Positions 4,226 to 7,370 of a stretch of DNA of 64,000 bases are shown here, piece by piece; within the stretch, counting starts at the first letter, position 1, and each line of letters starts with the position of its first letter. The DNA is taken from positions 496,001-560,000 of the forward strand of contig CM030338.1 of the NCBI GenBank assembly GCA_017654855.1. The letters are read 5' to 3'. The notes below the pieces were generated by a model. It was not told the DNA's origin and ran no database searches. It saw only the letters and a program-made list of their open reading frames with translations. Position numbers and translations under genes: made by a program. The stretch is from Podospora anserina. Taxonomy: Eukaryota.

Positions 4226-5350
4226 GAGAATGGACAACAAGGCTACGACGTGAAACGCTGGCTGGGTTGAACTGGTGGGACTTGGTGCCGTGGAGGGGCA
4301 ACGGGTTGTGGACCCTTTTTAAATGGTGGGATTGGAGTTGGTATGTATCTAGACAAATACCTACCGAGGTAACCAAAAGAAAAGCAGTTCCTAAAAAAAC
4401 ACAGAGAAGAAGATGACGTGCTGCAGACGGGAAGGTTGGAATAGGTTGTCGAGGGTTGCACTGAGAGGGGTCAAGTGTGCAATGGAAACCTTTGGATGGA
4501 TTGCGGAGTGCAGCGGGAGACCACCCCGCTCCTGCTTGGCGCTGTTGTCTCGTGCCGGAGTACCTCACAGGGCAAGCCCCGCCCCGGGGGGTCTTCAAGC
4601 TGGACGACTGAGAGTCTGAGACCATCCCGGCCATCCCGTCACCTGTCTTCCTCTTGTCCCAAGGTGTGCCACTCACTCTATGTACCGGGGATCACGAGGG
4701 ACCCCATCTGATGCTGATGGATGCGACGTGACGCAGGTTAACTGTACCCTACATATCCGTACTCCGTATCCATCAGGCATTCAACCAAGGCCTCAGACAG
4801 CAAGATTATCTAGTTCCAGGTAGGTTGTCAGTGCCTGAATAAGCCAAGTGGGGCGTCCTGGTTGGCTGCCGACCTCAGGCAGCCGGAAATGGGCAAGGCG
4901 CGTTTGTTCCCAACTGTTGCTCTTGGTGGCGCGCCGCCCACAATGCACTGTGCCTGCGTTTCGCGCCTTTGACCACAAGCTTTGGTTCACTCAAGATATC
5001 CATAGAAAAAGATATCCATCTTCAACTCGCTCCCCATTCCACCCCAAGACATTTCCACTCGACTTTAAATAATTTCCTGCACCAGGTAAAATTCACTTTA
5101 CTTTCTGCATCTTCTGGGGAACTCACCTGGCGACACGTGCTTGGACCATCTAGCAGCCTGTTCTCGCCTCCTCAAAACTCAAAAAGACCAACCGCAACTC
5201 TTTTACCACCAAACACAACCTTACACAACCCAACCACATCACTTCCAGGTTTCCGCTGCCCGAAAAAGTTTCAGTGCCTGCACCACCACCTGCTACCACC
5301 AGAAACTATCATAACACCACACAACACACTCCTCAGCCACGACATCAGCA

Positions 5351-6001
5351 ATGGCTTCATCACCAGCCCCTTCAGCTTCGGGCGAGCAATCGCAGCTCCA
5401 TGGCCAGAAGCCCCTCGAGCAAATCACGTTCCGTTTCTGCTCGGAATGCAGCAACATGCTCTACCCCAAGGAAGATGAGGCCGATCGCAAGCTCATGTTC
5501 ACCTGCCGCACTTGCAACTTCTCCGAAGAGGCCACCTCGTCGTGCATCTTTCGCAATGTCCTCAACAATGCCGCTGGCGAGACGGCCGGCGTGACGCAGG
5601 ACGTTGGCTCTGATCCTACGGTGGGTGATTCTTCTGTTGCTTCCCATCATGCTAGCTCGTTTGAACAACACCCGAACCCGGACCACTGCGCTTTTGTCTG
5701 CTGCCTGACATGCGGCCGCATGATTTCGTGTGAGATTTGCAAAGACCGTCTCGCCGTTCTCCCCACCGATGCCCACAATCCCGACATTCCCGTACCGCTC
5801 CAGAACTTCATGCGGCTCGATCAGGGCGACGCCGACATTTGCGCCTGGCAAGACAACCGCGAGAACCTCGCCGACTTCATGGCTCGGAGCGAGCAATATT
5901 TTGGCGACTTGATGGAGGAGGACGAAGAAGAAGCCATGGGATTCGAGCCCGAGAATAACGCCATGTCACACTACGTGCTCGCTCAAAGCGCTGCTGTGTA
6001 G
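5351..6001 (+). CDS. RPB9: Putative alternative RPB9 isoform (216 aa) reading into intron 1, with a Cys-rich and acidic C-terminus
   Basis: Exon 1 frame stays open for 126 further codons with C-ending, coding-like codon usage. Motif 'CAFVCCLTCGRMISCEICKD' and an acidic tail. Confidence 0.55.
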   Translation: MASSPAPSASGEQSQLHGQKPLEQITFRFCSECSNMLYPKEDEADRKLMFTCRTCNFSEEATSSCIFRNVLNNAAGETAGVTQDVGSDPTVGDSSVASHHASSFEQHPNPDHCAFVCCLTCGRMISCEICKDRLAVLPTDAHNPDIPVPLQNFMRLDQGDADICAWQDNRENLADFMARSEQYFGDLMEEDEEEAMGFEPENNAMSHYVLAQSAAV

Positions 6002-6482
6002 TCGCCAAACTCTTTCGATACATATTCACTTGACACGACGAGGCTATGACGACATGATTTGACGTACAAATTGTACAATATTCCTGGCAAACACGGCGTT
6101 CTTCATTTTTCTTGCAGCGGCACACGCAATCGTTACCTTTCTCTCGACGATCATATCCCGCAGCGTATACCGGTACATAGATAGACAGCGGGTTGGGAGT
6201 TCCGGTGTTGATTTGGTTAAAGCGACGAAGTGCACGGGTTTTCACGTTACCTATGTTTGAGCCAGTGGCTGACGGGGTTTCTGCTCTAGCTGCCAAGAGA
6301 ACAGCGCACTTGCCCCTCTTGCAACCATGGGGAGGCTGTCTTCTTTCAGTCTCAACAGCGAAGCGCTGAAACGGGAATGGTAAGCAGCTCCAGGCCTGTC
6401 ACCTTCTGGAGTCCAACTGTTGCTGACCCTTTCTCAGAAACTCTTTTATGTGTGCTGCTATTGCGGTAATATTTACCAATGA
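5351..6482 (+). CDS. RPB9: RNA polymerase II subunit RPB9, canonical 134-aa isoform; exons 5351-5620, 6290-6379, 6438-6482
   Basis: Exon 1 'FRFCSECSNMLYPKED..FTCRTC..QDVGSDPT'. Exon 2 'LPREQRTCPSCNHGEAVFFQSQQRSAETGM'. Exon 3 'KLFYVCCYCGNIYQ*'. Introns GTGGGT..(GCTGAC)..TAG (669 nt) and GTAAGC..CAG. Confidence 0.95.
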
Positions 6483-6867
6483 GTTTGGTCTTTCGGCGGG
6501 ACACTTGTACATCGGCGAGTAAGATACAGGAACATTTGCATGACACGGCGTTTGGCGAGATTGATATAGGAGTGGGAGAAGTTTATCACTGCTAGGGTAA
6601 ACAAAACTTGGCTTTGAGGATAGGAGGAGGCATCATCGATGGGAATTAATTTTTATTACTGGGCTGTTTATTCATGGGAATGAGGGACAAATGCGTGAAA
6701 GGAGAGGTGATTCGAGTATTTTGCCTGTATTGAAGCTGTACAAGTAGTTTACACGACGCCGTATAACGCCGTTCTGATGCCACTCCCCAGTGGAGCAATG
6801 ATATAATACACCCAAATGATCCCTCCCATGATTTGATTTTACGTTTTTTATTGGTGTTGGTCTCAGT

Positions 6868-7370
6868 TTATGCCTGCGAGGGGGCCATGCTGAGGATTCT
6901 GCTCCACTTCTTCTTGCGCAACTCCATGCCCACGACGCCGTTGATACGGGATCCGATAGGGTCGCCAGACTTGTTGATCAAAACGCAGGCGTTGTCGTCG
7001 AACTTGATGCAGCTTCCGTCTCTCCGGGTGACCTTTTGCTTCGTCCGCACGACGACGGCATGTCTGATATCACCACGCTTGACCTTGGCACCCGAGGCGG
7101 CGGCCATGCCGGCAGCTCCCGCATCTCTTTGCTTCTGCACGACCACCACGATCCGGTCGCCTGTATTGGTCAGTTGGGTGAGTTTTCTTCGGGTTTCTTG
7201 GGTAATTATCGTCGTACCGATCGAGGCGTGTCTCTTCTGGCCGATGACCATGGCGCATTCAACAATGGCGGCGCCAGAGTTGTCGATGCAGTTGAGCATG
7301 CTCTGGTGGAGAGGGTTAGCTTGATTTTATATTGGGCAAAAGAATAGAAAAGTACCTTTAGTTGAATCAT
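6868..7370 (-). CDS. MRPL38: Mitochondrial ribosomal protein uL14m; exons 7370-7356, 7302-7218, 7160-6868
   Basis: MIQLK|SMLNCIDNSGA..GDRIVVVVQK..AVVVRTK..DGSCIKFDDNACVLIN..PIGSRI, a classic L14 signature. Canonical introns. Confidence 0.93.

Follow-up and report, generated by a model that had tools for sequence, protein, structure and literature searches.

Why does the RPB9 gene of Podospora anserina carry a first intron of 669 nt that can be read through in frame for 126 codons? The gene lies on the + strand of a 64,000-nucleotide stretch of contig CM030338.1 (GenBank assembly GCA_017654855.1, positions 496,001 to 560,000), here called the window and numbered from its first letter. Rpb9 is a core subunit of RNA polymerase II (Pol II), with roles in fidelity, start-site selection, elongation and transcription-coupled repair, and core polymerase subunits are usually regarded as invariant. 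A first-pass annotation of the window had proposed that this intron hides an alternative C-terminus. I consider it probable that RPB9 is a two-product gene, in which retention of intron 1 gives a predicted second isoform of Rpb9. The phenomenon is broader than that annotation proposed, since by sequence comparison the extension is conserved over Sordariomycetes and some Leotiomycetes.

Exon 1 (5351-5620) comprises 90 codons from the ATG at 5351 and encodes the N-terminal zinc ribbon (Zn1) and the linker up to ..QDVGSDPT, with a Pfam match to PF02150 at residues 27-63 (E=1.4e-9, 38.1 bits, cut-off 25.2). Intron 1 (5621-6289, + strand, phase 0, GT..AG) opens on a weak, non-consensus donor, GTGGGT (5621-5626), that doubles as a Val and a Gly codon; it ends on the acceptor TAG at 6287-6289 (..ctag), preceded by a branch-site motif, CTGAC, at 6269-6273. 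With intron 1 removed, exons 1-3 give the canonical 134-amino-acid (aa) Rpb9. Exon 2 (6290-6379) opens the TFIIS-like C-terminal zinc ribbon (Zn2) with LPREQRTCPSCNHGEAVFFQSQQRSAETGM (LPREQRTCPSC.. from 6290), and matches PF01096 (E=2.4e-9, 37.3 bits, cut-off 21). Intron 2 (6380-6437) is 58 nt long (GTAAGC..CAG), and exon 3 (6438-6482) encodes KLFYVCCYCGNIYQ followed by TGA, a C-terminus that matches those of the related proteins.

When intron 1 is retained, the frame continues from DPT through 126 codons to the TAG at 5999-6001, so that the read-through open reading frame (ORF) at 5621-6001 forms the C-terminus of a 216-aa product, which matches PF02150 only and not PF01096. This C-terminus contains a pair of putative zinc knuckles, C-L-T-C-G-R-M-I-S-C-E-I-C (5702-5740, isoform residues 118-130), of the pattern CxxCG-x4-CxxC. 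At 5858-5956 there follow a predicted helix (..LADFMARSEQYFGDL..) and then an acidic tail, MEEDEEEAMGFEPEN. What is left of the intron (6002-6289) is non-coding and would be 3' untranslated region (UTR) in the retained form. Its GC content is flat by codon position, at 0.48/0.45/0.49 against 0.63/0.40/0.66 in the intron ORF, with overall GC content falling past 6000. The first-pass annotation had given the position of intron 1, the GTGGGT donor, the boundary after DPT, the 126-codon frame leading to 216 aa and the TAG, and, in the intron peptide, the arrangement C-x3-CC-x2-C-x5-C-x2-C with an acidic tail, DLMEEDEEEAMGFE. All of these are present, and the junction 5620^6290 is also seen in RNA contigs.

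Is intron 1 retained in RNA? Twenty-two sequencing runs carry the locus, none of them on record as RNA, and the contigs of four (X1, X5, X15 and X16) were mapped onto 4900-7000. All four contain the spliced intron-2 junction (6379^6438, GT..AG) and none contains an unspliced intron-2 contig, from which I deduce that they are RNA-derived. The splicing of intron 2 in four of four runs also excludes DNA contamination and antisense read-through as sources of unspliced intron 1. In X5, X15 and X16 the assembly graph forks at intron 1 into a spliced path, a 59-nt contig with the junction 5620^6290, and an unspliced path, a 728-nt contig spanning 5591-6318. Word depths, which measure abundance only roughly, are 54.5, 384.1 and 146.4 respectively for the spliced path, and 26, 357.2 and 109.9 for the unspliced one. 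X1 yields one 2086-nt contig covering 4979-6378 and 6437-7000, with intron 1 retained and intron 2 removed, and no spliced intron-1 contig was found in that run. Intron 1 is unspliced in roughly a third to a half of RPB9 molecules. The intron-retained mRNA that the first-pass annotation had postulated therefore occurs in every one of the four runs, either at a depth near that of the spliced form or as the sole form. The contigs span the whole of intron 1 into exon 2; contigs of this kind cannot show poly(A) sites or ends. The same state is found in another species, where a metatranscriptome contig (L014), 96% identical to the genomic locus L012, retains its 746-nt RPB9 intron 1 with three other introns spliced out, namely intron 2 of RPB9 and two in the adjacent downstream gene.

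How widely is the intron-encoded peptide conserved? A search with the 126-aa peptide alone returned seven proteins at 53-85% identity. Annotated Rpb9 proteins account for five of them, from Apiosordaria, Triangularia (two species), Cladorrhinum and Podospora fimiseda, all 244-258 aa long and with both Pfam domains; the other two are raw ORFs of Logan assemblies, terminated by a stop as in the window. An all-against-all HMMER comparison over 1.84 billion representatives added a 223-aa JGI 'RPB9' of 46% identity that lacks the C-terminal ribbon. In an 11-sequence alignment of close relatives every indel is in frame, and V116, C117, C118, L119, C121, G122, I125, C127, E128, C130, L134, L137, P138, D157, D162, F184, G185, E194, M196, G197 and E201 are invariant.

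At E<=1e-10, at least 998 database proteins (8000 candidates scored) match a profile built from 37 diverse read-through sequences. Sordariomycete hosts among the matches listed are Podospora, Cercophora, Chaetomiaceae, Colletotrichum, Diaporthe, Sporothrix, Grosmannia, Trichoderma, Cordyceps, Claviceps, Aphanocladium, Niveomyces, Thyridium and Pleurostoma, and the Leotiomycete hosts among them are Lachnellula and Tricladium, with a short form beginning VGLPLCLLCG... Of 137 relatives collected, 107 stop in a knuckle-bearing extension without the C-terminal ribbon and 22 are 'long', with both ribbons; the rest comprise seven other read-through forms and one other long form, and the knuckle is present in 129. 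The 163 distinct peptides with natural ends include 120 with CxxC-x5-CxxC, five with a spacer of six, 26 with three cysteines, 11 with one CxxC and one with none. Gly directly follows the first CxxC in 156 of 162 peptides, and the tail carries a net negative charge in 152 of 161 (median -17). Over 138 sequences C118, C121, G122 and C127 are nearly invariant.

At the DNA level, a metagenome scan seeded from exon 1 provided the best 80 of 109 fungal RPB9 loci with DNA, a set ranked by similarity to the read-through query and hence skewed towards carriers of the extension; the scan with an insert-only alignment gave no match. Together with the window these make 81 sequences, of which 79 could be anchored on ..DPT, L054 and L060 being fully spliced, cDNA-like contigs. 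At least one CxxC occurs in the in-frame extension of 66 of the 79 (CxxC-x-CxxC in 33, CxxC-x-C in 22, CxxC only in 11), eight have none (three of these are truncated contigs), and five are intronless and cDNA-like, lacking intron 2 as well. Extensions at the anchored loci range from 23 to 230 codons, in host introns of 159-830 nt.

What kind of constraint acts on the extension? Protein-guided codon alignments were made within clades, and 10 phylogenetically independent pairs, chosen to be close and unambiguous, were compared. Pooled, these pairs differ at 177.7 of 2123 non-synonymous sites and at 197.3 of 631 synonymous sites, a pN/pS (the ratio of the non-synonymous to the synonymous proportion) of 0.27 with a binomial p of 1.8e-35. 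Six of the ten are significant by themselves: L005-L009 (p=4e-21), L008-L016 (5e-8), L073-L077 (1e-4), L039-L040 (3e-4), L012-L014 (8e-4) and L029-L034 (1e-3). The best pair, L005-L009, has a dN/dS (the corresponding ratio of rates) of 0.07, and its differences are distributed over codon positions 1/2/3 as 20/5/66; L009-L012 gives 7/2/25. Among 55 distinct loci two invariant cysteines use TGC and TGT about equally and an invariant glycine uses all four of its codons, a mix of synonymous codons that argues for constraint on amino acids and not on an RNA motif. Judged by these comparisons, the intron-encoded peptide is under purifying selection at the amino-acid level. The first-pass annotation had proposed checking whether orthologous introns stay open after DPT and keep CxxC..CxxC under such selection, and the comparison across loci finds that they do.

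The donor of intron 1 is conserved as well. Among 60 distinct loci the orthologous donor is GTGGGT in 25 and GTTGGT in 21 (46 in total), most donors of intron 2 being GTRAGN; the conservation of so weak a 5' splice site at intron 1 is in keeping with regulated retention. The non-coding remainder also changes slowly. Across the rest of intron 1 (6002-6289 in the window; L005, L009, L012, L014 and L016 among the other loci), it diverges less than the synonymous sites of the adjoining ORF, by 0.066 against a pS of 0.197 in L009-L012 and by 0.25 against 0.595 in L005-L009. Blocks common to the window and the Chaetomiaceae-like loci are GGGAGTTCCGG (6195-6205), CCAGTGGCTGAC (6262-6273) and a repeated ACGAC, which may be a splicing-regulatory or 3' UTR element. 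Rfam gave no match at E<=1 in 5300-6600.

The closest competitor to the two-product reading is that the unspliced RNA is detained or targeted to nonsense-mediated decay (NMD) and sets the level of canonical Rpb9, the peptide itself being functionless. The donor is both weak and conserved, a long distance separates the stop from the exon junction downstream of it, the conserved blocks of the remainder diverge less than synonymous sites, and the peptide has been lost in some lineages, all as this would predict. A feedback is also conceivable, given that lowered Rpb9 raises intron retention in yeast (PMC4868539). However, a functionless peptide does not account for a pN/pS of 0.27, an excess of third-position changes, in-frame indels and synonymous codons at invariant Cys and Gly across fungal classes, nor for a frame that stays open for 100-230 codons in many independent lineages, and retained and spliced RNA are present in similar amounts. 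I therefore regard regulation alone as improbable; regulation as such is compatible with a coexisting functional isoform.

Do the two ribbons and the peptide instead belong to one protein? A second donor, GTGTAG at 5996, could splice to 6290 and yield an Rpb9 of about 258 aa with the peptide inserted between the ribbons. The window does have a phase-0 GT there, with a remainder (5996-6289) of 294 nt, divisible by 3. Records of Apiosordaria, Triangularia, Cladorrhinum, Chaetomium and Colletotrichum model the gene in this way, and the 22 'long' public models among the 137 relatives (range of long models 244-287 aa) have PF02150, a knuckle insert and PF01096. Yet a junction from about 5995 to 6290 was found in none of the four RNA-derived runs, contigs being liable to drop rare forms, and the donors used by the models sit at differing aligned positions (QSAA|, QSA|, NNTI|, HYTL|, HYAL|), as is typical of ab initio bridging of ORFs. 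Across 49 distinct loci, the last 12 codons never contain a donor-like phase-0 GT, the lengths of the remainder show no bias towards multiples of 3, and nine (L008, L023, L035, L038, L039, L040, L041, L042 and L077) leave 14-44 nt after the stop, too short for an intron. In addition, 107 of the 137 relatives terminate at the intronic stop. Because the insert models are unsupported and the RNA contig L014 keeps the whole of intron 1, the conserved product is best seen as the read-through protein that ends within the intron, and I rate the insert as very unlikely.

Conservation could also be due to a gene on the opposite strand, where a 197-aa frame is open at 5372-5965 (- strand) in the window; among the 30 loci with extensions of 90 aa or more, 21 have such a frame open across at least 80% of the extension. 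In the window, however, its codons pair exactly with those of the sense frame, so that only the rare sense codons TTA, CTA and TCA can close it, and an open antisense frame is the expected shadow of codon bias. An antisense gene predicts change mainly at sense position 1, against the 20/5/66 and 7/2/25 observed. It also overlaps RPB9 exon 1, and CxxCG..CxxC can be read only in the sense frame, contiguous with DPT, all of which makes this explanation scarcely credible. Least likely of all, to the point of being effectively refuted, is an accidental open frame in a long intron combined with splicing noise: 182 of 20000 dinucleotide shuffles of the intron give at least 126 open codons from the donor (p of about 0.01, for the window locus alone), but the comparative and selection evidence speaks against it and retention is specific to intron 1, being absent at intron 2.

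Four further candidates were rejected. The peptide is no intein, as its first residues are Val-Gly, its end is set by a stop codon and an HN motif is lacking; nor is the intron an exitron, for its 669 nt equal 3 x 223 but enclose the in-frame TAG at 5999-6001, and the remainders of the 49 loci lack a multiple-of-3 bias. A nested gene with its own start does not fit conservation that begins at the donor and includes no conserved Met, and a snoRNA-host intron was set aside as less likely, no known Rfam family having matched at E<=1, though an undescribed RNA may lie there.

How might a two-product RPB9 operate? With intron 1 spliced, the product would be canonical Rpb9 (Zn1, linker and TFIIS-like Zn2 ribbon), and with intron 1 retained, as the conserved weak donor GT[G/T]GGT would favour, translation would proceed past ..DPT into the intron and stop at the TAG. 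The predicted 216-aa isoform would keep Zn1 and the linker and swap Zn2 for the knuckle pair, a short helix and a strongly acidic tail. By analogy with truncated yeast Rpb9, which can function without Zn2, it might dock on Pol II through Zn1 and the linker, and the resulting polymerase variant would lack the TFIIS-like ribbon and have the acidic tail displayed close to the jaw and lobe. Regulated splicing would presumably set the ratio in which the two products are made, possibly with feedback through splicing itself.

What would the alternative C-terminus look like? AlphaFold2, given 138 sequences, places the N-terminal ribbon (residues 31-60) at a predicted local distance difference test score (pLDDT) of 92-95, a small beta module with short strands over the knuckle (residues 111-140) at 81-88 and a helix (residues 170-190) at 58-73, the remainder being disordered; with the shallow 11-sequence alignment the pLDDT is 38.6. 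The knuckle cysteines of the window are spaced C118-x2-C121-G-x4-C127-x2-C130, which makes two CxxC(G) knuckles with four candidate ligands. In a VIA fold search residues 26-71 align to Schizosaccharomyces pombe Rpb9 (3h0g_I; Z 4.7, root-mean-square deviation 2.1, 45 residues aligned). That search aligned the N-terminal ribbon and helix only, the knuckle module falling outside the aligned part.

These features can be set against known systems. The isoform shares with canonical Rpb9 (POLR2I) the gene, exon 1, the N-terminal zinc ribbon and the linker to the conserved DPT, but in place of the PF01096 ribbon of exons 2-3 it has the 13-residue knuckle pair, helix and acidic tail. In yeast, a form comprising residues 1-52 (Zn1 and linker) is functional for some roles, restoring autophagy and ATG1 transcription with Zn2 dispensable, and mutants of the Zn2 cysteines are tolerated (PMC9638876); those truncations are engineered, whereas the fungal form is a natural mRNA isoform that adds a conserved C-terminal module. 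SKI7/HBS1 is likewise described as a rare conserved case of fungal alternative splicing (PMC3597508) that gives two proteins from one gene, but it concerns another gene and another mode of splicing, RPB9 retaining a whole intron with its own stop. The archaeal TFS4 is described as a TFIIS/Rpb9-family paralogue that inhibits RNA polymerase and whose altered C-terminal part changes polymerase action (PMC5715097); it is, however, encoded by a gene of its own instead of arising by splicing, and does not bind the polymerase as a stable subunit. By this analogy an inhibitory role for the fungal isoform is a possibility only. Finally, exitrons, detained introns and NMD-coupled splicing also involve retained introns with coding potential, and RPB9 intron 1 additionally has a weak donor, with its stop preceding an exon junction. 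It differs from exitrons, which have no in-frame stop and keep the downstream frame, in terminating the protein at 5999-6001, and from typical unproductive retention in that the retained sequence is under amino-acid-level purifying selection.

A bolder proposal is that filamentous ascomycetes run two kinds of Pol II that differ in Rpb9 and are chosen between by regulated retention of intron 1. The alternative subunit would be anchored by Zn1 and the linker, the TFIIS-like ribbon would be removed, and the knuckle would be placed at the jaw and lobe together with an acidic, aromatic-studded tail; there the tail could recruit a basal or repair factor or compete with one. The TFIIS-like ribbon serves fidelity, the handling of backtracked polymerase and start-site selection, and the tail has what I take to be a resemblance to acidic motifs that bind the PH domain of TFIIH p62/Tfb1. 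The arrangement might even be a self-sensing switch, conceivable because Rpb9 activity influences intron retention, as the yeast result shows (PMC4868539). I put this forward tentatively, and in its entirety it is doubtful.

Several points weigh against the two-product reading. The isoform protein is a predicted one, known here from RNA contigs and sequence comparison, and the RNA origin of the four runs is itself a deduction from spliced junctions, the depths on which abundance was judged being a rough measure. Four of the ten pairs, which have few differences, are not significant (L043-L044, p=0.32; L050-L052, 0.08; L025-L074, 0.12; L007-L011, 0.40). The dN/dS estimates come from other lineages, the window's own family having been compared as protein sequences only, and protein-guided codon alignment lowers dN/dS in divergent pairs. 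The retained mRNA looks like an NMD substrate, its stop at 5999-6001 being 378 nt upstream of 6379^6438, past the distance of about 50 nt that marks such substrates; this junction is spliced in the retained form in X1. Exon-junction-complex-linked NMD operates in Neurospora, and NMD may modulate the retained mRNA. As for the module, the whole AlphaFold2 model is weak (mean pLDDT 63.8, predicted template modelling score 0.29), Pfam has no family for the 126-aa peptide at E<=1, and a PDB profile search found no relative of the module, only a chance match to polyubiquitin at E=0.39. The short Leotiomycete-type form has three cysteines in an extension of 26-45 aa, the extensions of L066/L070 and L079/L080 are of 6 codons and that of L045 of 19, none with the motif, and L078 has a degenerate copy behind a GTGAGT donor. 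The module, eroded or lost in some lineages, is thus not universally required.

What follows if the two-product reading is right? Splicing would then regulate the composition of the polymerase across a very large set of fungi, from at least two classes of Pezizomycotina and including major model organisms, plant pathogens and industrial species, and RPB9 would join the few ancient protein-diversifying alternative-splicing events known in fungi. In the literature on RPB9 and fungal splicing I found no paper describing an intron-retention isoform of RPB9. That intron retention can give an alternative C-terminus is a known mechanism; what seems to be new is its use in a core Pol II subunit, together with the module itself and the wide conservation. 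Public gene models are affected in any case, being wrong or inconsistent in many genomes, with 107 of 137 relatives lacking the C-terminal ribbon and 22 fusing both products. Among the collected proteins (P0003-P0139) the canonical Rpb9 of about 134 aa is often not the annotated product in Sordariomycetes, and the 22 fusions use ad hoc donors.

Lost extensions read VRLLSF* and VRPPSL*, with a GTTCGT donor. Exon 1 of these loci, as of L078 with its degenerate copy, is almost identical to that of the short-form, Leotiomycete-like group; this points to repeated loss of the extension. In a short-form locus (L043:60-458) the ORF reads FCSEWYLSALPKEYFHMLT.. ahead of MLYPKED, suggesting that an additional intron lies within the region coding for the N-terminal ribbon in that lineage.

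Two observations concern the flanks of RPB9 in the window. A putative 5' UTR extends over 4979-5350 (+ strand), as contigs start at 4979/4980 in three runs and 4900-4970 is uncovered; this is a weak hint of an unusually long leader of about 370 nt upstream of the ATG, for contigs cannot define ends. Downstream, a convergent neighbour (6868-7326, - strand) encodes ribosomal protein L14 (PF00238, E=2.3e-40). The RNA contigs are continuous from the 3' end of RPB9 into this gene, and the 3' ends of the two genes probably overlap, since the contigs run unbroken between them. The L14 gene also adjoins RPB9 in L012/L014.

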